From: Shigella phage vB_SboM_Phaginator
Sequence record: OL615012
DNA length: 64,000 nucleotides
Direction: 5' to 3' (one strand)
A program made the position numbers and the translations under genes. Shown here piece after piece: positions 23,300 through 61,468 of this stretch (position 1 is its first letter; each line of letters opens with the position of its first letter). Under the pieces are notes generated by a model, which did not search any database, was not told the DNA's origin, and was given only the letters and a program-made list of their open reading frames with translations.

Positions 23300-23302
23300 C
23301 AA

Positions 23303-23330
23303 TGGGGACCGAAAGGTCCCCATATTTTTT
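23303..23330. terminator. Bidirectional terminator between gene 54 and convergent early ORF
   Basis: GGGGACC-GAAA-GGUCCCC hairpin followed by ATATTTTTT. Confidence 0.7.
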
Positions 23331-23619
23331 ATTTACGGAATGAAATAAAAGCAGCAACTGAAGCAACTAAACTGTCTTCAATATAAACTTCAATTTTTAC
23401 CGGAGCTTCTGATTCAAATTTACCTGTTACTACACCCTGAAAAATACTTTCAGTCTGTTCTGGCTTTGAAAAATTTTCAGAAGGAAAAATTCCGAACTTT
23501 TTATCTGTTCCAAAAATTTTGATAAATTCATCGTAAACTGCTTCATTAAAAGCATTATCAGCAGGAATAACGCCTTCAACTACAAGTTCTTGACCTAAAA
23601 AGCGCAAAGAAGATTTCAT
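23329..23619 (-). CDS. Hypothetical protein downstream of alt
   Basis: 96-aa ORF with GAGGA ribosome-binding site and early-promoter-like cassette upstream. Confidence 0.6.
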   Translation of the reverse strand: MKSSLRFLGQELVVEGVIPADNAFNEAVYDEFIKIFGTDKKFGIFPSENFSKPEQTESIFQGVVTGKFESEAPVKIEVYIEDSLVASVAAFISFRK

Positions 23620-23680
23620 TTTGTGTTCCTCATGTTATGTCAGTAAGATTACTATAACACAACACGAGGGACTTGTAAAC
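23620..23680 (-). promoter_or_regulatory. Early-promoter-like cassette (GTTTAC -35, 18 bp spacer, TGnTATAGT -10) with inverted repeat covering the ribosome-binding site
   Basis: Minus-strand GTTTAC (23675-23680), TATAGT (23651-23656); inverted repeat CCUCAUGUU / AACACGAGG; near-identical copy upstream of alc. Confidence 0.5.
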
Positions 23681-25737
23681 TACATTTTGAACTTTTTAGA
23701 CATTCCGTTAATGTTAACCAAAGAAGCTAAGATTTGAGAAACTTCGTTTTCCTCTTCTTTTGATTCTTCTACAAGGAATTGATTAAATCCAGTCATTGGA
23801 CGAACTTCACCAGTTTCCATCAAATGGTCGCCATCATATACTGATTCCTCTAATTGTTCAGAAGGAGGAACGATTGTACCTTCGATTAGATACTTGTTAT
23901 AAGCAGTTTCTTTCATAAAGTACGTACTTACTTTATTAATCTTCAGTAAAATTCCACGTGGTAGAATAACTTCAGCTTCTGATGGAAATCCTGATAAATG
24001 ACCTGGAACGATAACTTTGATTCGCTCAGCTCCTTTAATTACCATACCCACGCTAGTTTCAGCATCTTCATTAGCATATGTAGAATGACTACCCATATGC
24101 ATCAAATCTTCTGCATCAACGGAACCTTCTCCTTCACCAGAAAATACTGCGCCGGAATCATCTAGAGCCATATAGTTTTTACCATGCTCACCGAAGATAT
24201 TTGGTTTAAGCGATGTGGATACGAAGTTCTTGAAATAGAACATTTTGTTTTCAATGTTATGACGCAAAGTTTTAAAGGTAACTTCTTGACCACGGTAAAG
24301 TGTAGTTCCTGGAGGAAGAACTGAACCTTTAGCGAATGCAGAATCAAGCGTCTCAATATGTTTAATAGCTCGTTCCATATATTCTTCACGGGTAGAATCT
24401 GGTTTACCCAAAAGGAACGAGTTCATTTCAACATATGAATCTGCGCAATAATCTTCAATTACATCAGATTCAGCTTGAGTTAATCCTTTTGGAGTTACTT
24501 CGGTGCTCGCGTATTCATATGCCTGAGCGGCAGATTCATTAATCAATTTATAAATGCCATTCATGACAAATTGAATAATAGCTGTCTTTTCATCTGGTGT
24601 AGCTTTAGAACCTTTAACTAAATCATTGATAATTTTCTTAATAACATCAAAGCTATTAGAAATATTAATGTCAGCAAGATCGCTTAAAATTTTATCAGTT
24701 TTATAATCAAAGAATTCTTTATTCTTTAAATATTCTTGAGAACCTTGATATGTTATATCGCTCTGCAACTTGATAGATGGATCACGTAAACGCGCATGGG
24801 CTAATGCAATATGATTTCGGAAACTTTCTAGTTCATAATCATTAGATTTAAAACGAGAAGCACTTCTCATACCACCGATAGCTCCTTTGCTGAAGTTTGA
24901 ACCAATCTGAATAACGCCAGAGTTCATTGGTCCTTCTGCTTTATATACCGGAACTTTAGATTCAAACTCTTGATATTTCTTAGCAGCGAAGCTATCACCC
25001 TGAAGTGAAGCATCAACAGTAGAATATTGAGCTTGTGCTGCTAATCGACGACTAATTTTAGTTTTCTGAATAACAGCTTGATCAGTGCGCTTATCATTTT
25101 CTAAAGCAATAGAAGCAGCAACAGCAACAGCTTTAGGAACAGCATTTCCTGTTTTAACGTCTACATAAACATCACCAACCTTTGATTCAACTTTTGTGAA
25201 TAACTCAGTTGAAATAGGAGGTATACCTGGAATGTCTTCTAAATTGGCATTTTTACGGTAAACCATAATATATGCATATTTCTTATCATAGTCCCAGATT
25301 TCCTTTAAAAGAACATACCGACCTGCTCCTTTAGTACGTACTAAACGGTCAGCAATAACTTGCATTTGACGGGCTGCGCCATTTGTTTTACTTTTTAGTA
25401 CGCGGAATAGGCATGCATCAATTTTATACTGTTTCATTGTTTGAAGAGCAGTATCAAAAACAGCATTAATGACGCCAATTGGATTTCCACCCAAGTTTTT
25501 AAGCTTGACTAACGATAATTTCTCGTTGACACCTATCATTACGATATGCATCATTTTGTCGCCCGGCTTAACGTTTTTATTCGTATCGCCGCCAGAGGTG
25601 TATGTACAAAATCTAAATCCAGGAAGCACGCTTTCTTCGCCGACTTGGATAGCAAAAATTTGTGGTATTTTATGCTTAGGATTTAAGTTAACAACCGGCG
25701 CCGAAGCGCCGTCAAATAATTCTGTAATAAGTTCCAT
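23680..25737 (-). CDS. alt: Alt ADP-ribosyltransferase (packaged, modifies host RNA polymerase), copy 1
   Basis: 685-aa ORF (T4 Alt 682 aa); R-S-E motifs (YRGQ, FVSTSL, EAEVILPRG); N-terminal MELITE resembles a gp21 cleavage/capsid-targeting signal. Confidence 0.9.
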   Translation of the reverse strand: MELITELFDGASAPVVNLNPKHKIPQIFAIQVGEESVLPGFRFCTYTSGGDTNKNVKPGDKMMHIVMIGVNEKLSLVKLKNLGGNPIGVINAVFDTALQTMKQYKIDACLFRVLKSKTNGAARQMQVIADRLVRTKGAGRYVLLKEIWDYDKKYAYIMVYRKNANLEDIPGIPPISTELFTKVESKVGDVYVDVKTGNAVPKAVAVAASIALENDKRTDQAVIQKTKISRRLAAQAQYSTVDASLQGDSFAAKKYQEFESKVPVYKAEGPMNSGVIQIGSNFSKGAIGGMRSASRFKSNDYELESFRNHIALAHARLRDPSIKLQSDITYQGSQEYLKNKEFFDYKTDKILSDLADINISNSFDVIKKIINDLVKGSKATPDEKTAIIQFVMNGIYKLINESAAQAYEYASTEVTPKGLTQAESDVIEDYCADSYVEMNSFLLGKPDSTREEYMERAIKHIETLDSAFAKGSVLPPGTTLYRGQEVTFKTLRHNIENKMFYFKNFVSTSLKPNIFGEHGKNYMALDDSGAVFSGEGEGSVDAEDLMHMGSHSTYANEDAETSVGMVIKGAERIKVIVPGHLSGFPSEAEVILPRGILLKINKVSTYFMKETAYNKYLIEGTIVPPSEQLEESVYDGDHLMETGEVRPMTGFNQFLVEESKEEENEVSQILASLVNINGMSKKFKM

Positions 25738-25740
25738 GAT

Positions 25741-27834
25741 TTATCCTTGAACGAACTTGTAAGGCATGTTTGTAATATCTATGCAAGACGCAATAATTCC
25801 AAGAGATGATTCTACTTTCTGTTTAACATTTGATGAAACAAATGATGCAAAGTCAACTCTGTCTTCTATTTCAATATCATCTGTCATTGCAACTACTTCG
25901 CCGGTTTCCATTAAATGGTCTCCGTCATAGATTACCGATTCGGTGAGTTCTTCTGTGGTCATAACTTCAGCTTGAATGAGTTTTGTATTATTAGATGTTG
26001 TTCCGTCATTATTAGAAGCATCAGTTATTTTATTAACTTTGACCATCAATCCGCGCGGTAGAATAACTTCAGCTTCTGTTGCTATTCCGAGACTTCCTGG
26101 ATATACAACATTAACTTTATGAGCTCCATCAATTGCCCATCCTATTTGAACTTTAACGTATTCAGGATTTTCTTTATACGCTCTTATTTCGCTTGGATTA
26201 ATAGTTATTCCTTCTTCATTTTTATCAACTGTCAATTCATTACGAGCTTCTGGTTCTAAAAGACCAATACCAGCATGTGTAATTCCAAAACGTCCAAAAA
26301 TGATAGGAGTTAAAGAAGTAGATACAAAATTTCTGAAATAGAACACTTTATTTTTAACTAGTGCTTCGTATATAGGAGCAGTCATACTTTGAGCACGATA
26401 AACTGTGATGCCTTCCGGTATGCGGTCACCATTTTCAAAAGCTGAATCTAAGTTATTTATAGCAGATTCAATTTCTTTTTCACTCATTACATCATATCGT
26501 TCTGGATTGTAACGACCTAAAAGAAGATTATTGATGTCAGTATATCCTGAACCGCAATATTCTCTAATGCCACGCTTTTGTGATGGAGTATATTTAGAAC
26601 CATCACGGGCAATAGTAATATCAATCATTGGACCAGCACCAATTCCAGAAAAACTGTAAATCATTCGTTTGAGGAATTTAGTTTTTGCTGCGTTCCAGGA
26701 ATTTTTAGTTATTTCTTCCCAGACTTCATCTGGTTGTCCTTTACGAGTTTTATTATGTTTATCAAGCCAATTATCTTTATATTCTTCAAAGAATTTATTA
26801 ACAGCTGCTGCGTATTTCTCTAAACATTTTATTGAAGTAGTTGGTTCATTTTTGATTGCGTTAAAAATTACATCTTTAATTTTTTCTGAAACTTCATCAA
26901 CCTCACTTTTTGAAAAGAATTTATAGTCATAGTGAAGTTCATTCGCAGTTCCTTCGGCAATAATTTTTGCTGCCTTAGTTTTAGAAGCTAATGAATTAAT
27001 TCCAAGCTTCATTTCTTCTGCTTCGGGAATTAAAGGAGCGGTAGCAGGTTTATTGAAATTAGCTGCGGTAGATTCATACTTCTGGAATAATTCACTTTCA
27101 AATCTAGAAGATTCCAATGATTGACTTTGTGCAATTGCTCTACGGGAAATTTTAACTTTAACGATTACCGCTTGGTCAGAACGTTTATCATTTTCTTGCG
27201 CAATAGATGCTGCAATTGCCTCATTTTTAGTTACTTGGGCTCCAGTATCTTTATTGATATAAACATCACCGACCTTTGATTCAACTTTAGTAAATAGCTC
27301 GGTACTAATTTCCGGAACTCCTGGAATGTCTTCTAGTGATACATTTTTGCGATGTATAAGAATATATGCATACTTTTTATCGTAATCCCAGAGTTCCTTA
27401 AGAAGGACGTATCTGCCACCTGAACGACTACGGATAAGTCTATCAGCAATAACTTGAATTTGTCGAGCTTGGCCAGCAGTTTTAGACTTAAGAATACGAA
27501 GCATACAAGCATCAATTTTATATTGACGCATAGTTTGCATTGCAACAGTAAAAACTGAATTGATATAATTAATTGGGCTTGGACCAAGACCTTTTAATTT
27601 AGCAATTGAACCTTTAGCAGTTAATGTAAAAGGAACAATATGCATCATTTTATCGCCCATCTTTAAATCGCGATTAGTATCACCTCCAGATGTATAGGTA
27701 CATAAACGAAAGCCTGGTTGTTCAATTGCATCATCAACATGAACTGAAAAAATTTGTGGTATTTTCTTCTTTGGATTTAAGTTTGTAATCGGAAGAGTAG
27801 TATCTTCGTCAAATAATTCTGTAATAAGTTCCAT
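25741..27834 (-). CDS. Alt-like ADP-ribosyltransferase paralog, copy 2
   Basis: 697-aa ORF; same N-terminal MELITELFD, conserved first ~230 aa and same R-S-E motifs (YRAQ, FVSTSL, EAEVILPRG), divergent middle region. Confidence 0.85.
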   Translation of the reverse strand: MELITELFDEDTTLPITNLNPKKKIPQIFSVHVDDAIEQPGFRLCTYTSGGDTNRDLKMGDKMMHIVPFTLTAKGSIAKLKGLGPSPINYINSVFTVAMQTMRQYKIDACMLRILKSKTAGQARQIQVIADRLIRSRSGGRYVLLKELWDYDKKYAYILIHRKNVSLEDIPGVPEISTELFTKVESKVGDVYINKDTGAQVTKNEAIAASIAQENDKRSDQAVIVKVKISRRAIAQSQSLESSRFESELFQKYESTAANFNKPATAPLIPEAEEMKLGINSLASKTKAAKIIAEGTANELHYDYKFFSKSEVDEVSEKIKDVIFNAIKNEPTTSIKCLEKYAAAVNKFFEEYKDNWLDKHNKTRKGQPDEVWEEITKNSWNAAKTKFLKRMIYSFSGIGAGPMIDITIARDGSKYTPSQKRGIREYCGSGYTDINNLLLGRYNPERYDVMSEKEIESAINNLDSAFENGDRIPEGITVYRAQSMTAPIYEALVKNKVFYFRNFVSTSLTPIIFGRFGITHAGIGLLEPEARNELTVDKNEEGITINPSEIRAYKENPEYVKVQIGWAIDGAHKVNVVYPGSLGIATEAEVILPRGLMVKVNKITDASNNDGTTSNNTKLIQAEVMTTEELTESVIYDGDHLMETGEVVAMTDDIEIEDRVDFASFVSSNVKQKVESSLGIIASCIDITNMPYKFVQG

Positions 27835-27857
27835 TATAGCCTCTCTAGTGTTTATTC

Positions 27858-27865
27858 TATTTATA
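27858..27865 (-). promoter_or_regulatory. Late promoter (TATAAATA, minus strand) for alt paralog
   Basis: Minus-strand TATAAATA 24 bp upstream of ATG at 27834. Confidence 0.55.
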
Positions 27866-27870
27866 AAATT

Positions 27871-27888
27871 AAAGGCCCGAAGGCCTTT
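27871..27888 (-). terminator. Hairpin terminator at end of the gene 30 transcription unit
   Basis: AAAGGCC-CGAA-GGCCUUU hairpin overlapping stop codon of 62-aa ORF. Confidence 0.5.
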
Positions 27889-28075
27889 AGTAATCTAGTG
27901 GTAAGAGAGTACGATATATTTCAAACTTTGGTCCTTTTTCATAGGCATCAAATGTTTCTGTAAATTTATTATAAGCGTATGCATCTACAAATTCGAGAAT
28001 GACTTGTGATACAGAAGTAGAAACATCTCCACCTTCTTTTTGAGCAATGACAATTGTTTCTAAGTAAGCTTTCAT
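27887..28075 (-). CDS. Hypothetical protein
   Basis: 62-aa ORF with 4-nt overlap with ligase start. Confidence 0.5.
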   Translation of the reverse strand: MKAYLETIVIAQKEGGDVSTSVSQVILEFVDAYAYNKFTETFDAYEKGPKFEIYRTLLPLDY

Positions 28076-56818: not shown

Positions 56819-59800
56819 ATGGCTACTTTAAAACAAATACAATTTAAAAGAAGCAAAACCGCAGGTGCACGTCCTGCTGCTTCAGTATTAGCCGAAGGTG
56901 AATTGGCTATAAACTTAAAAGATAGAACAATTTTTACTAAAGATGATACAGGAAATATCATTGATCTAGGTATTGCTAAAGGCGGTCAAATTGATGGAAA
57001 TGTAACTATTGATGGAACTTTACGCGTCAATGGACCAATAAACAACTTTGGAAATTTTTCTACAAGTGGTACTATTACGGCAAGTAATATTGTTTCTGCT
57101 ACAGTATTCAGATCAACATCCGGTTCATTTTATACAAGAGCAATAAATGATACTGCAAATGCCCATCTTTGGTTTGAAAATACGAATGGATCGGAGAGAG
57201 GGGTTTTATATTCAAAACCACAGTCTGAAAATGAAGGCGTAATTACAATGCGCGTTCGCCAAGGAACCGCAGCAGGGGCTCAAAATTCAGAATTTCATTT
57301 CATTTCTACTGATGGCGGTATCTTCCAGGCACGCAAATTAACTGCTTTAACTTCTATTAGTACACCAACTATTAGTGTTAATTTAATTAATCATGATTCT
57401 AAAGCCTTTGGACAATACGATTCACAATCATTAGTTCAGTATGTTTATCCTGGAACCGGTGAAACAAATGGTGTAAACTATCTTCGTAAAGTTCGAGCTA
57501 AATCAGGTGGAACTATTTACCATGAAATTTGTACAGCTCAGACTGGGCTAGCTGATGAAGTTTCTTGGTGGACTGGTAATATACCGTTATTTAAACTATA
57601 CGGTATTCGTAACGACGGTAGAATGATTATCCGCAATAGCTTGGCCATTGGTACTGTGACTGAAGGATACCCGTCAAGCGATTATGGAAATACCGGGGTA
57701 ATGGGAGATAGGTATTTAGCTCTTGGCGATAATGCTTCTGGACTTAAATGGGTTCGTACTGGCGTTATTGACTTAATGGCTAACGGTATTTCTGCGGCGA
57801 CTATTATTAATAATGGTATTAATAGTACTAAAAAATTGATGGTTGGTTATAGTCGAGATTCTGGTTCTACTTGGGATTTCCCAAATAACAACCAAGCAAT
57901 GTTTACTGCGCGTACCGATGTTGATGGTAATAATAACGGTGATGGTCAAACTCATATCGGTTATAGCAGTAATTCTAAAATGTATCACTATTTCCGTGGT
58001 ACAGGTCGTATGTCCGTTAGTATGGGCGATGGACTTCTTGTTGAACCGGGTATTTTAGACATTAAAACTGGTTCAAATACATTAAGTTTGCGTGCTGATG
58101 GTACCGTCGCTTCTGTTCAAACATTAAAGCTTAATAATGGATTGTATTTTAATGGTGATGGAACTAATGCTTCTCTAGTTTTTAAAGCAGCTTCAGGTGT
58201 TGATGGTACTAAGCAAATTATGTGGGAAGGTGGTACTCGCCCAGGGCAGAATAAAAGCTACGTAACTGTTAAAGCATGGGGTAATTCATTTAACGCATCT
58301 GGTGATCGTAATCGTGAAACAGTCTTTGAAGTATCAGATGGGCAAGGTTACCATTTTTATTCTCAACGCGTAGCTCCTGCACCTGGTTCGACTGTCGGGC
58401 CTATTCAACTCCGAGTTAATGGTGGTTTATTAACTTCAGGTAGTATTGTTGCTTCTGGTTCTATTACAACCGAATCAAGCTTAGTTGCAAATAATGGATT
58501 ATCTGTAAATGGACAAGCTAAATTTGGTGGAACAGCAGATGCATTAAGAATTTGGAATGCTGAATATGGCGCTATTTTCCGTCGTTCAGAAAGTAGTCTT
58601 TATATTATCCCGACTCCTAAAGGTGCCGGAGAATCGGGCGGTATAAGTAATCTTAGACCATTGATAATAGAACTGAACACTGGCACAGTTAAAATGTCGC
58701 ATGATGTTCATTTAGGAGATTCTGGATCTGGTACAGGATTATTACAAGTAAGTAATAGTCTTAAAACTATTAAAATGATATGTCCAGTAACTATTAATGA
58801 ACGCAATGCAGCACTTACCCTGGATTCTCCTTCATCTTCTTCTGCTAATTATTTACAGGGTTCTAAAGCTGGAACTAGATCATGGTACGTTGGTCTTGGC
58901 GGCGCTGGAAATGATTTATCTCTTTATAGCCAATCTTATGGACATGGTCTTGTTATAAGCGATAATTTCGTGTCAATCAGTAAACCTCTTAAAGTTGGAA
59001 ATGCCCAACTAGGAACTGATGGTAATATTACTAGCGGTTCAGGAAACTTTGCCAACTTGAACACCACGCTAAACCGTAAAGTTAATTCTGGATTTATTAC
59101 TTATGGAGCAACCGCTGGATGGTATAAGTTTGCAACAGTAACAATGCCACAATCCACTTCGACGGTCTTCTTTAAAATAGCCGGTGGTTCTGGATTTAAT
59201 AGCGGATTATTCACACAATGCAATATTGCTGAAATTGTTTTACGTACTAGTAATGAAAGACCTGCTGACTTAAATGCTGTATTATATACAAGAACATCTG
59301 GACTGTATAGCGCAGCATTTAGAAATATTGCAGTTAACAATGTCTCTGGAAATACATATGACATTTATGTTTATGCCGGAACATATTGTAATCAACTAGC
59401 GTGTGAATGGTCATGTACCGAAAATGCTACTGTTAGCGTTATTGGTATTAACTCATCTACACAATCACCTGTAGATGCTCTTCCAGATACAGCAGTTAAC
59501 GGTCAAGTTGCTAATGTTCTTAATAACTTGGTTGATCGTGGTAAAGCAAAACGTTATGTAGCAGAATCTGAAATTGCTATTAATAACCAAACGGGTCTTC
59601 GTATTACGAGTAATTCTGATAAATCTGGTTCAAATTCAGTATTATTCAGAAATGACGGTGGAAGCTTCTATATTTTACTGACCGACAAAAACTCTTCAGA
59701 CGGCGATAATAAAGCAACTGAAGGTGATTGGAATGGAAAACGACCATTTTCAATTGATATGACTGCTGGTACTGTTCGTCTTGGCGAAAATACTTCTTTT

Positions 59801-60646
59801 AGTAAAGATGTTACTATTGATGGAAACATTAATTCACGAGTTAAAGTTGTCGGACAGTGGAATGTTAGCTTTTCTGATATTTCAGATGTGACTCGTGACC
59901 GTTCTGCATTTTTAGTGAATACAGGCGGCATTTCCAAGACAAGTCAATCTTATTACCCACTATTTTCTGGATACAGTTTTTTAACTGACACGGGTTATCG
60001 CCAATCGTTTGAATTTGGATGGTTAGGTGTTTCTGGTACTTGGCGTCAAGGCATTATTCGCATGCGTGGTGACAAGCCATCGGGGCAACAGGCTCGTTGG
60101 ACTTTTGATATGGACGGAACATTTTATGCTCCTAAATTGGCTTGCGGTTCTACCGGTGCCCTTGGTATTAACACATCCAACGGATGGGGTGGTAACTCAA
60201 TTGCAATAGGTGATAGCGATACCGGTTTTAGACAAGTAGGTGATGGGCTTTTAGAAGCGTGGGCTAACAATGTTAAAGTTGTTAGATTCACCTCGGGTGA
60301 AGTTTATTCCGAGAAAAACGTCAACGCTCCTAACGTTTATATTCGTTCTGATATTCGTTTGAAATCTAATTTCAAGCCTATTGAAAACGCGCTCGAAAAG
60401 GTTGAACAACTTGATGGTTTAATCTATGACAAAGCTGAATATATAGGCGGTGAGCCTGTTCAAACTGAAGCGGGTATTATAGCTCAAACGTTACAAGACG
60501 TTTTACCAGAAGCTGTCCATGAAACAGAAGACAGTAAGGGTAATAAAATACTCACTGTTTCTTCTCAAGCTCAGATTGCTCTTCTGGTTGAAGCTGTGAA
60601 AACACTTTCCGCTCGTGTAAAAGAACTTGAATCTAAACTTATGTAA
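56819..60646 (+). CDS. 37: Long tail fibre distal subunit gp37 (T2-type, with C-terminal chaperone-like module)
   Basis: 1275-aa ORF; N-terminal region conserved with T4 gp37; C-terminal ~99 aa begins SDIRLKSN, like autoproteolytic intramolecular chaperone domains. Confidence 0.92.
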   Translation: MATLKQIQFKRSKTAGARPAASVLAEGELAINLKDRTIFTKDDTGNIIDLGIAKGGQIDGNVTIDGTLRVNGPINNFGNFSTSGTITASNIVSATVFRSTSGSFYTRAINDTANAHLWFENTNGSERGVLYSKPQSENEGVITMRVRQGTAAGAQNSEFHFISTDGGIFQARKLTALTSISTPTISVNLINHDSKAFGQYDSQSLVQYVYPGTGETNGVNYLRKVRAKSGGTIYHEICTAQTGLADEVSWWTGNIPLFKLYGIRNDGRMIIRNSLAIGTVTEGYPSSDYGNTGVMGDRYLALGDNASGLKWVRTGVIDLMANGISAATIINNGINSTKKLMVGYSRDSGSTWDFPNNNQAMFTARTDVDGNNNGDGQTHIGYSSNSKMYHYFRGTGRMSVSMGDGLLVEPGILDIKTGSNTLSLRADGTVASVQTLKLNNGLYFNGDGTNASLVFKAASGVDGTKQIMWEGGTRPGQNKSYVTVKAWGNSFNASGDRNRETVFEVSDGQGYHFYSQRVAPAPGSTVGPIQLRVNGGLLTSGSIVASGSITTESSLVANNGLSVNGQAKFGGTADALRIWNAEYGAIFRRSESSLYIIPTPKGAGESGGISNLRPLIIELNTGTVKMSHDVHLGDSGSGTGLLQVSNSLKTIKMICPVTINERNAALTLDSPSSSSANYLQGSKAGTRSWYVGLGGAGNDLSLYSQSYGHGLVISDNFVSISKPLKVGNAQLGTDGNITSGSGNFANLNTTLNRKVNSGFITYGATAGWYKFATVTMPQSTSTVFFKIAGGSGFNSGLFTQCNIAEIVLRTSNERPADLNAVLYTRTSGLYSAAFRNIAVNNVSGNTYDIYVYAGTYCNQLACEWSCTENATVSVIGINSSTQSPVDALPDTAVNGQVANVLNNLVDRGKAKRYVAESEIAINNQTGLRITSNSDKSGSNSVLFRNDGGSFYILLTDKNSSDGDNKATEGDWNGKRPFSIDMTAGTVRLGENTSFSKDVTIDGNINSRVKVVGQWNVSFSDISDVTRDRSAFLVNTGGISKTSQSYYPLFSGYSFLTDTGYRQSFEFGWLGVSGTWRQGIIRMRGDKPSGQQARWTFDMDGTFYAPKLACGSTGALGINTSNGWGGNSIAIGDSDTGFRQVGDGLLEAWANNVKVVRFTSGEVYSEKNVNAPNVYIRSDIRLKSNFKPIENALEKVEQLDGLIYDKAEYIGGEPVQTEAGIIAQTLQDVLPEAVHETEDSKGNKILTVSSQAQIALLVEAVKTLSARVKELESKLM

Positions 60647-60647
60647 A

Positions 60648-60665
60648 AGAGGGCTTCGGCCCTCT
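60648..60665 (+). terminator. UUCG hairpin between genes 37 and 38
   Basis: AGAGGGC-UUCG-GCCCUCU; followed by AAGGA ribosome-binding site of gene 38, weak U-tract. Confidence 0.45.
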
Positions 60666-60676
60666 AAGGATTTTTA

Positions 60677-61468
60677 ATGGCAATTGTAGGTGTTCCTGGC
60701 TGGATTGGTGAATCTGCCGTGAATGAAACTGGACAACGCTGGATGGATGCTGCGATGAAAGCTGTTCGTGTTTCAGTTCCCGGTTGGATGAGTTCAATGG
60801 CTGGGCAATCTAAAGAAGTATATTATAGCATTGGTGCTAGCAATTCTTACAATAAAGACACACTAATAAATTGGATAAAAGCCCAAGGAAGTACTCCTGT
60901 TGTTATTACTATTACAGGAAATATTGTTTCTCAATCTACTGGTGTTCCATGCTTAGATTTTCCTAGCTCATTAACTAATGCGTATGTTACCTTAAATATT
61001 AATAGCGGGGTTCATGTATTGGGTCGGGGAGGAAATGGCGGAAGTAACTCTGCTGGTGGAGCAGGAGGAACTGCAATAAATAACGGAATTGGAACTCGTT
61101 TAAGAATAAACAATAACGGTATTATTGGTGGCGGTGGCGGTGGCGGTGCTGGTGCTAGATACCATCCTTTCCCTCAAATGGATATGATATTTGGTGGAGG
61201 CGGAGGTCGTCCATTTGGCGCAGCTGGCGCAGCAGGAGGTGGCGCAGCAGCAGCATCTGCTGGTACAATTTCTGCTCCTGGTAAAGGTACTGTTTCTGGG
61301 GTTCACTATGGAGGAAATGGTGGAGATTTGGGAGCTGCTGGCAAGTCTTCATATATTCAAGGCGGTACTGGAGGAACTGTTCACTCGGGCGGTGCGGCTG
61401 GTAAAGCTGTTACTGGTAATGCTCCAACTTGGACTAAAGTTGGCACAATATATGGTTCAAGAGTATAA
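60677..61468 (+). CDS. 38: Receptor-recognising adhesin gp38 (T2-type, glycine-rich motifs)
   Basis: 263-aa ORF with several poly-Gly blocks separated by short variable segments; unlike the 183-aa T4 gp38 chaperone. Confidence 0.85.
   Translation: MAIVGVPGWIGESAVNETGQRWMDAAMKAVRVSVPGWMSSMAGQSKEVYYSIGASNSYNKDTLINWIKAQGSTPVVITITGNIVSQSTGVPCLDFPSSLTNAYVTLNINSGVHVLGRGGNGGSNSAGGAGGTAINNGIGTRLRINNNGIIGGGGGGGAGARYHPFPQMDMIFGGGGGRPFGAAGAAGGGAAAASAGTISAPGKGTVSGVHYGGNGGDLGAAGKSSYIQGGTGGTVHSGGAAGKAVTGNAPTWTKVGTIYGSRV
61022..61406 (+). repeat. GGT/GGC-rich codon repeats encoding glycine-rich motifs of gp38
   Basis: Runs such as GGTGGCGGTGGCGGTGGCGGTGCTGGTGCT visible in DNA. Confidence 0.8.

Follow-up and report, generated by a model that had tools for sequence, protein, structure and literature searches.

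T4 Alt ADP-ribosylates the alpha subunit of RNA polymerase together with other E. coli proteins (PMC5512222, PMC9503650), is cleaved at ITE-6 and LTE-619 to a 68.2-kDa form (PMC5694885) and is inactive when its catalytic Glu is mutated (published as E577A; PMC11404850). Its gene (NP_049811, 682 aa) lies between alt.1/gene 30 and alt.-3/gene 54. In RB32, a second gene at this place has been annotated since 2006 as alt.-2, 'similar to alt', and duplications of alt, the T4 remnants included, were described in the same year by Nolan et al. (PMC1524935). Hundreds of records now carry the annotation 'Alt-like RNA polymerase ADP-ribosyltransferase' twice. The two-copy locus of Shigella phage vB_SboM_Phaginator (OL615012), which the original prediction had described as a tandem duplication, is thus preceded by all of these; since hundreds of genomes already list the second alt and the T4 record itself accounts for the remnants, its value as a discovery is low.

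How does this locus compare? Within the 64,000-nt stretch of DNA that we analysed (the window), two adjoining minus-strand open reading frames of 697 and 685 codons, both starting MELITELFD, occupy exactly the positions that had been claimed for them, in the conserved order gene 30 - alt.1 - alt - (alt.-2) - alt.-3 - gene 54. The features are as follows.

27870..27889, minus strand: terminator-like hairpin TAAAGGCCTTCGGGCCTTTA plus T-run; 8 pairs, 4 of them G-C, loop of 4 (terminator scan)
27858..27865, minus strand: T4-type late promoter motif TATAAATA, 23 nt before the alt ATG
27840..27845, minus strand: Shine-Dalgarno GAGAGG of the upstream alt gene (read from sequence)
25741..27834, minus strand: upstream gene, 697 aa, alt ortholog (ORF, homology)
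27121..27816, minus strand: upstream copy, N-terminal alpha/beta domain, aa 7-238
26599..27120, minus strand: upstream copy, all-alpha central region, aa 239-412
25939..26598, minus strand: upstream copy, ADP-ribosyltransferase (ART) domain, aa 413-632
25744..25748, minus strand: Shine-Dalgarno AAGGA of the downstream gene, within the upstream gene's last codons (Q-G-stop)
23680..25737, minus strand: downstream gene, 685 aa, ortholog of RB32 alt.-2 (ORF, homology)
25024..25719, minus strand: downstream copy, N-terminal alpha/beta domain, aa 7-238
24493..25023, minus strand: downstream copy, all-alpha central region, aa 239-415
23845..24492, minus strand: downstream copy, ART domain, aa 416-631
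25390..25398, minus strand: 9-bp direct repeat CTAAAAAGT, left copy; one breakpoint of the T4 alt.-2 deletion
23691..23699, minus strand: 9-bp direct repeat CTAAAAAGT, right copy
23329..23619, minus strand: alt.-3, 96 aa, DUF5498, last gene before the terminator
23302..23323, both strands: bidirectional terminator-like hairpin in the gap between alt.-3 and gene 54, closing the alt transcription unit

Orthologous to alt of T4 and of RB32, the upstream gene encodes a product 70% identical to T4 Alt, as against 41% overall for the downstream copy, and it agrees with the T4 gene in place, late promoter context, architecture, R-S-E/ExE motifs and gp21 cleavage sites (ITE-6, and LTE near the C-terminus in T4). 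The N-terminal 238 residues are 100% identical to those of T4 Alt; beyond them, the upstream copy is a different allele, with 31% identity in the central region, 64-67% in the ART domain and saturated dS. This ART domain is 94% identical in amino acids and 90% in nucleotides to that of the upstream alt of Dhakavirus IME341, against a baseline of 57-70% amino acid identity for neighbouring genes.

Both proteins belong to the Alt family of ADP-ribosyltransferases. The Pfam domain PF03496 (ADPrib_exo_Tox) scores 71.9 bits in the 685-aa and 129.2 bits in the 697-aa protein (gathering cut-off 23.4), and phrog_802, 'Alt-like RNA polymerase ADP-ribosyltransferase', matches residues 1-685 (E = 6e-257) and 1-696 (E = 4e-273), respectively; database orthologs carry PF26846 (Tevenvirinae_ADPRT) next to PF03496, and the ART fold is that of the R-S-E ADP-ribosyltransferases of the Alt/VIP2 type. 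The 697-aa protein has the motifs YRAQ (R480), FVSTSL (S505-T-S507) and EAEVILPRG (E587, E589), the 685-aa protein YRGQ (R482), FVSTSL (S507-T-S509) and EAEVILPRG (E587, E589). Aligned to the toxin CdtA, YR and ExE coincide with its catalytic motifs, and the catalytic R, STS and ExE are invariant and correctly ordered in alignments of 18 and 26 sequences. By our count the T4 ExE is E574/E576, with V at 577, and we infer that the published E577 is the second Glu of this motif; both proteins keep a Glu at the equivalent position. The claim that each frame carries the R-S-E motifs therefore held for every catalytic residue, neither copy having lost any, and both genes are intact, predicted catalytically competent alt paralogs.

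The two paralogs align over their full length at 41% identity (BLASTP, E = 3e-164), unevenly distributed: 67-68% over aa 1-238, 21% over aa 239-415, 34-36% in the ART domain and 44% in the C-terminal tail. The shared N-terminal portion of ~230 residues and the central divergence on which the original prediction had rested are thus both real. Between the central regions of the two lineages (~175 residues), profile comparison detected no homology (hhalign probability 0.08%, E = 0.64); both are predicted to be all-alpha, and they could represent the same fold, diverged past sequence recognition, rather than different modules. The ART domains differ by large indels between the STS and ExE motifs, the interval that holds the substrate-recognition loops of such enzymes. 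Divergence between the copies has reached saturation at synonymous sites (dS 1.1-1.8), so the duplication is not recent.

The same alt-alt pair is found in Dhakavirus IME341. There, each copy clusters with its positional counterpart in Tequatrovirus as regards the central, ART and tail regions, whereas the N-terminal domains group by genome and not by position (66-67% identity within a genome versus 43-47% between genera). Judging from these groupings, concerted evolution within each genome affects the N-terminal delivery module, while the effector half, made up of the central and ART regions, is exchangeable; the N-terminal domain would be the module that directs the protein into the head core. 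Might the two enzymes nevertheless be redundant, modifying the same targets (RNA polymerase alpha, for example), with the second copy providing dosage or robustness? They have the catalytic motifs, the ExE signature of arginine specificity and the overall architecture of their models in common, but central regions without detectable homology, ART domains that differ precisely where the recognition loops lie, and the persistence of two distinct lineages across two genera all argue against this reading, as does the fact that dosage duplicates, unlike these copies, are normally similar in sequence. We regard redundancy as unlikely. Unrelated centres would fit different targets, and it is plausible that the two enzymes act on different host proteins.

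With regard to expression, the predicted late promoter behind a terminator hairpin is indeed present at the upstream copy: hairpin TAAAGGCCTTCGGGCCTTTA (27889-27870, minus strand) lies 3′ of alt.1, and TATAAATA (27865-27858, minus strand) follows it directly; this motif has 18 matches in the 64-kb window against 8.7 expected by chance. The second gene is presumably co-transcribed late from this promoter. Only 3 nt separate the TAA stop of the upstream gene from the ATG of the downstream gene, an arrangement kept, together with the AAGGA, in RB32, ESH35 and Dhakavirus IME341. Translational coupling is probable for the second gene, since its Shine-Dalgarno sequence sits within the last codons of the first. 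The following gene, alt.-3, has an early-like promoter of its own (23679-23651).

Both proteins also carry the marks of head processing. Judged at the level of sequence motifs (ITE-6 plus an L-x-E ~55-65 residues from the C-terminus), gp21 sites are present at ITE-6 and LTE-632 in the 697-aa protein and at ITE-6 and LEE-631 in the 685-aa protein, with predicted mature products of ~70.1 kDa and ~69.2 kDa; the same mapping applied to T4 Alt returns the published 68.2 kDa. The Glu of the C-terminal site is invariant in the alignments of 18 and 26 sequences, and AlphaFold models of both proteins are disordered beyond both cleavage sites. These features bear on whether the downstream protein, as an active ART made late, might go unpackaged and act in the producing cell instead of being injected. 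An obvious late promoter motif was found only at the upstream copy and none directly upstream of the second gene, and a literature search returned no virion proteomics or functional data (targets, phenotype) for the second copy, which would suit such a protein. Yet the MELITE hexapeptide, the 68%-identical N-terminal domain shared with the packaged Alt and the retained C-terminal L-x-E|S site for gp21 have no obvious use outside the prohead, and concerted evolution of the N-terminal domains within each genome fits co-adaptation to the same head core. We consider an unpackaged enzyme quite improbable.

RB32 alt.-2 (YP_803136) is orthologous to the downstream gene, which is the intact counterpart of the T4 remnants alt.-1 and alt.-2. 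The downstream product is 99% identical to RB32 alt.-2 and 98% to the ESH35 protein; across RB32, T2 and ~400 other Tequatrovirus records, alt.-2 is 685 aa long, stands at the same position and shows 97-99% amino acid identity, and this phage, differing from the group in nothing of substance, is one more member of it. A full-length second gene is present in ~400 of ~540 related phage records (about three-quarters of sequenced Tequatroviruses), including T2, which has both copies. Strong purifying selection acts on this gene, with dN/dS at 0.037-0.045 overall and 0.031 in the ART domain (dS ≤0.55).

In T4, alt.-1 (NP_049810) is 93% identical to residues 1-56 of the downstream protein and alt.-2 (NP_049809) 98% identical to residues 62-116; the two are fragments split by a frameshift, with the codons from ~117 onward deleted. 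The missing 1,699 bp are those between the two CTAAAAAGT repeats, of which T4 retains one copy and the present phage both, intact, and T4 alt.-2 now ends in KCSLQVPRVVL, which results from reading over the former stop codon out of frame. In 401 phage records, at least 80% of the missing segment is present, mostly at 94-98% nucleotide identity. The T4 record calls alt.-1 and alt.-2 'a duplication of the first part of gene alt'; what our comparison shows instead is a duplicate of full length, later deleted in T4. That T4 has a single 682-aa alt is consequently right in so far as only one full-length copy is present, and incomplete in that the small frames alt.-1 and alt.-2 remain of a second. 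A duplication relative to T4, as had been proposed, has the direction wrong: the two-gene state is ancestral and that of the majority (the 401 records; the Dhakavirus pair), and the T4 remnants and junction, with both repeats intact here, speak for an old duplication and a deletion in T4 rather than a duplication in this phage. The locus is unstable, as the loss between 9-bp repeats demonstrates. T4, and possibly also phages with a single hybrid alt gene, thrive without a complete pair, so that on laboratory hosts at least the second enzyme is dispensable.

We give next to no credence to the downstream copy being a decaying duplicate on its way to the T4 state, with no function of its own: T4 has lost its second copy and Alt itself is reported to be non-essential (PMC9026906), but the reading frame is intact over 685 codons in ~400 records, dN/dS is as low as 0.04 overall and 0.03 in the ART domain at dS up to 0.55, catalytic and cleavage-site residues are all invariant and a positional ortholog is kept in another genus, so that the selection data effectively refute decay.

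Together, these observations lead us to hold, with good confidence, that the locus encodes two old tandem Alt paralogs, both made late, packaged and injected as ARTs, probably with different targets, and that it is modular and unstable. Given purifying selection, both cleavage motifs and its position in the late unit, the downstream gene most likely encodes a second packaged, injected ADP-ribosyltransferase. In the sequence of events that we envisage, the locus holds two versions of Alt, the internal head protein and arginine-specific R-S-E-type mono-ADP-ribosyltransferase of T-even phages. Both would be transcribed late from TATAAATA, the second being translated by coupling, and enter the prohead core via the shared N-terminal domain and the terminal propeptides. 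After gp21 has trimmed them to ~69-70 kDa, they would enter the cell along with the DNA and modify host proteins by ADP-ribosylation in the opening minutes of infection; owing to their non-homologous all-alpha centres and divergent ART loops, the two probably have different target sets. More tentatively, at somewhat less than even chances, we propose the specific version in which Alt.-2 is a second virion-delivered ART whose targets differ from those of Alt, being determined by a central domain unrelated to that of Alt and by diverged ART loops.

All Alt biochemistry comes from T4, a natural alt.-2 deletion mutant. If our reading is true, decades of work on host takeover by T4 would, on account of this deletion, have missed an injected effector used by most Tequatroviruses, T2 included, and Alt proteins would form a modular 'delivery domain plus swappable effector' system, with ART cassettes moving between genera. 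Exchangeable central and ART modules could also shed light on substrate choice in these enzymes, and T4 and a two-copy relative represent a ready-made experiment on the diversification of injected effectors.

Tandem alt paralogs at the same locus are known from Dhakavirus IME341 and JS10, 44RR (ORF187c/188c) and RB49 (ORF183c). More distantly, the C3-like, Vis and iota/CDTa/VIP2 toxins (PF03496) have the ART fold and the R / S-T-S / E-x-E active site in common with both proteins, but are secreted, are 14-26% identical and are devoid of the T-even N-terminal domain, the all-alpha centre and the gp21-cleaved propeptides. A similar logic, a conserved part for head delivery joined to a diverse, exchangeable effector, governs the T4 internal proteins IPI-IPIII, for which homology to Alt was neither found nor is claimed: these combine a conserved capsid-targeting sequence with a hypervariable payload, are cleaved by gp21 and are injected (PMC3012670, PMC9026906). 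Their conserved part is a peptide of 10-20 residues, whereas that of Alt consists of a folded domain of ~230 aa and two short propeptides.

The window is a Tequatrovirus (T4-like) segment spanning, in this order, genes for the tail sheath, the head, the baseplate hub and the long tail fibres, with phage vB_EcoM-UFV13 as its nearest record over 25 kb (~95% identity). Its alt locus consists of two adjacent minus-strand ORFs, whose coordinates and shared start the original prediction had exactly right:

25741-27834, minus strand: upstream gene, alt, 697 aa, beginning MELITELFD
23680-25737, minus strand: downstream gene, alt.-2, 685 aa, beginning MELITELFD

The two proteins are 41% identical end to end (E = 3e-164), and pairwise alignment bore out the expected conserved N-terminus of ~230 residues followed by a divergent centre: identity is 68% over residues 1-238, falls to 21% over 239-415, and stands at 34% across the catalytic domain and 44% for the C-terminal tail. 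Both exceed the Pfam threshold for PF03496 (ADPrib_exo_Tox) and are spanned end to end by phrog_802 ('Alt-like RNA polymerase ADP-ribosyltransferase'). The R-S-E catalytic motifs are likewise present in each, as R480, S505-S507 (Ser-Thr-Ser) and E587/E589 (Glu-x-Glu) in the 697-aa protein and as R482, S507-S509 (Ser-Thr-Ser) and E587/E589 (Glu-x-Glu) in the 685-aa protein; across two alignments, of 18 and 26 family members, no substitution occurs at the catalytic Arg, Ser-Thr-Ser or Glu-x-Glu, and these motifs align with their counterparts in the CdtA toxin. On every testable feature, both proteins are predicted members of the R-S-E Alt/VIP2 ADP-ribosyltransferase (ART) family and of the T-even Alt group. 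No NCBIfam family was found for either of them. Against Pfam at E ≤ 10, the isolated N-domains (residues 1-240) gave no match and the isolated central segments sub-threshold noise alone (CesA, Noc2, YtxC). Phmmer searches of the PDB returned no relative of the 685-aa protein at E ≤ 0.01 and just weak CdtA/iota matches, over 70 residues, for the 697-aa protein; no Alt structure was found in the PDB search.

Adjoining alt.1 and the DNA ligase gene, the upstream gene is, by position and similarity, the alt ortholog; its product shares 70% identity with T4 Alt as a whole and 100% across residues 1-238. The downstream gene is, on the same kind of evidence, the ortholog of RB32 'alt.-2', the product of which is 99% identical to the downstream protein and which the RB32 record annotates as 'similar to alt'. 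The statement that T4 has a single alt is correct only in part, as the T4 locus is not simply single-copy: alt.-1 (61 aa) and alt.-2 (67 aa) remain, matching the downstream protein at 93% identity over residues 1-56 and at 98% over residues 62-116, respectively. DNA alignment revealed that the counterpart of window positions 23700-25389 is missing in T4, and the same 9-bp direct repeat lies at both edges of this segment:

25390-25398, gene strand: 9-mer CTAAAAAGT, at one edge of the segment missing in T4
23691-23699, gene strand: 9-mer CTAAAAAGT, at the other edge

The T4 junction holds one copy of the repeat, while RB32 and ESH35 hold both. Because the loss of 1,699 bp is not a multiple of three and shifts the frame, T4 alt.-2 ends in KCSLQVPRVVL, an out-of-frame reading around the old stop codon, whose sequence is still visible in the window. 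As judged from these alignments, T4 lost most of a full-length second gene through a microhomology-flanked deletion; its small ORFs are not a partial duplication.

How old, then, is the pair? Among ~540 phage records with a match to the locus, 401, T2 included, contain 80% or more of the segment that T4 lost, mostly at 94–98% nucleotide identity, and the Alt family as a whole was detected by tblastn in 1,221 phage records, many with two or three copies. The duplication had originally been taken for a feature of this phage. This reading has to be abandoned, as the pair is common to ~400 phages and Dhakavirus and dS between the two copies is saturated (1.1–1.8); a recent duplication in this phage is rejected on the same grounds. 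In comparison with Dhakavirus IME341, three protein regions group by position: the central region (65% identity between upstream copies, 45% between downstream copies, 20–23% across positions), the C-terminal tail (54%, 67% and 42–48%) and the ART domain (94%, 58% and 35–43%). The N-domain groups by genome, at 66–67% within a genome vs 43–47% between genera. Since the whole-protein identity of the upstream copies (67%) is inflated by their 94%-identical ART domain, it is the central and tail regions that argue for a duplication before the genera split. The most economical reading would be an ancient duplication, with both effector halves distinct before the Tequatrovirus/Dhakavirus split and an N-domain that has since been homogenised or has co-evolved within each genome.

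The upstream gene is itself a mosaic relative to T4 alt. Over residues 1-238 dS is 0.11; over residues 239-632 it exceeds 1, identity being 31% for the central region and 64–67% for the ART domain, of which T4 Alt carries a different allele; and over residues 633-697 it returns to 0.105, with 91% identity. Conversely, the ART domain of the upstream gene (25939-26598) matches that of the upstream alt of Dhakavirus IME341 at 94% amino acid and 90% nucleotide identity, compared to 57–70% and 65–74% for the five neighbouring genes and 46–47% for the N-domain of the same Alt protein. The excess over the neighbours points to an ART cassette that moved between genera fairly recently. In addition, four hybrid proteins from SRA assemblies (P0003-P0006) join an alt-type N-terminus to an alt.-2 body, at four different switch points within the N-domain, and one SRA-derived contig bears a hybrid locus:

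L004:5001-7055 (Logan SRR24155011 contig, 65 kb): single hybrid alt, flanked by alt.1 and alt.-3 with no other alt gene in between

Unequal crossing-over between tandem copies would be expected to produce such hybrids, which may accordingly represent rare natural recombinants. Alternatively, they may be assembly chimeras; a search of complete phage genomes gave no match to the hybrid locus in one piece, only two-part matches to ordinary two-gene loci.

With respect to expression, the late-promoter motif proposed behind a hairpin ahead of the upstream copy was confirmed, and a second exact octamer lies within that gene:

27889-27870, minus strand: hairpin, immediately preceding the late-promoter octamer
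27865-27858, minus strand: T4-type late-promoter octamer TATAAATA, directly after the hairpin and 23 nt ahead of the alt ATG
26454-26461, minus strand: second exact TATAAATA, internal to upstream alt, 717 nt before the downstream ATG
25741-25750, minus strand: alt/alt.-2 junction with a 3-nt spacer, the last alt codons, Q-G-stop (CAAGGATAA), doubling as Shine-Dalgarno sequence

From alt through alt.-2, no terminator-like site was found on the coding strand before the hairpin after alt.-3. Together with the 3-nt gap and a Shine-Dalgarno sequence (AAGGA) for alt.-2 in the final codons of alt, this suggests that one late transcript would cover both genes and that alt.-2 translation would be coupled to that of alt. 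The junction is the same in the RB32, ESH35 and Dhakavirus IME341 loci (in the Dhakavirus version, CAAGGGTAAATAATG), which suggests that translational coupling has been conserved and that the C-terminus of Alt is under constraint. The internal octamer is probably a coincidence of coding sequence: it encodes A-I-N-N, occurs in the RB32-type allele only (kept in RB32 and ESH35) and is missing from the T4 and Dhakavirus alt alleles. Alternatively, it could act as an internal late promoter for alt.-2.

Several neighbouring genes deserve mention. In the tail fibre region, a distal long-tail-fibre ORF of 1,275 aa is followed by a 263-aa ORF (56819-61468, plus strand). T4 gp37 and gp38 comprise ~1,026 and ~183 aa, and by ORF sizes and the neighbours' annotations the pair resembles the gp38 adhesin arrangement of the T2/T6 type, not that of T4. 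The alt.1 product (27887-28075, minus strand, 62 aa) is a full-length match to PF24647 ('Phage blade protein'; E = 2e-29), and alt.1 overlaps the ligase stop codon by 4 nt. On the other side lies alt.-3 (23329-23619, minus strand, 96 aa, DUF5498), with an early-type promoter-like site (23679-23651, minus strand; TTTACA, 17 nt, TATAGT with a TG extension) that overlaps the alt.-2 stop codon. The mutations by which T4 is reported to escape the CmdTAC defence system are C-terminal extensions of Alt.-3 (PMC11618068).

By every available sequence test, the second gene appears functional. Its dN/dS between orthologs is 0.037–0.045, and 0.031 in the ART domain despite a dS of up to 0.55; at ~0.04, a pseudogene is ruled out. 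T4 Alt resides in the prohead core at ~40 copies, which the gp21 protease trims and which are injected along with the DNA; the alpha subunit of RNA polymerase and further host proteins are then ADP-ribosylated (PMC9026906, PMC5512222, PMC9503650). The cleavage sites of T4 Alt were assigned by mass spectrometry to ITE-6 and LTE-619, leaving a 68.2 kDa product (PMC5694885), and mapping them onto the T4 sequence gives the same mass. Corresponding motifs occur in the 697-aa protein (ITE-6 and LTE-632; predicted product 70.1 kDa) and the 685-aa protein (ITE-6 and LEE-631; 69.2 kDa). At the C-terminal site, the Glu is invariant and the next Ser nearly so in family alignments. In both AlphaFold models, disorder starts just past this site, and the first 10–11 residues, including the N-terminal site, are disordered. 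Most likely, the two products would be co-packaged through their shared N-domain, matured by gp21 and then co-injected. The literature searched yielded no virion proteomics or functional work on the second copy, presumably because the model phage T4 lacks it.

Do the two enzymes act on different host proteins? Their central ~175 residues, predicted to be helical in both, have no profile-profile similarity (hhalign probability 0.08%), a null result that fits module replacement and extreme divergence alike. ART substrate-recognition loops fall between STS and ExE, and in the alignment this stretch differs between the lineages by large indels. As circumstantial evidence, these differences are compatible with different host targets, as originally proposed. 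A role for Alt.-2 as an additional injected effector, acting on targets of its own, is a serious possibility, which we hold tentatively.

The two-gene alt locus is real but not new: for hundreds of phages, GenBank and RefSeq list a pair of genes here, each named 'Alt-like RNA polymerase ADP-ribosyltransferase', and Dhakavirus IME341 has the identical gene order (ligase, alt.1, alt, alt, alt.-3, gene 54). Duplications of alt in 44RR and RB49 were reported by Nolan et al. (2006; PMC1524935), who also described the alt.-1 and alt.-2 remnants in T4; the T4 record explains these two as remnants of a duplication. To these facts, the present analysis adds the exact mechanism of the T4 deletion, a view, domain by domain, of a delivery domain that evolves in concert and an attached effector half that can be exchanged, and evidence from selection and processing sites for a functional, probably packaged second enzyme.
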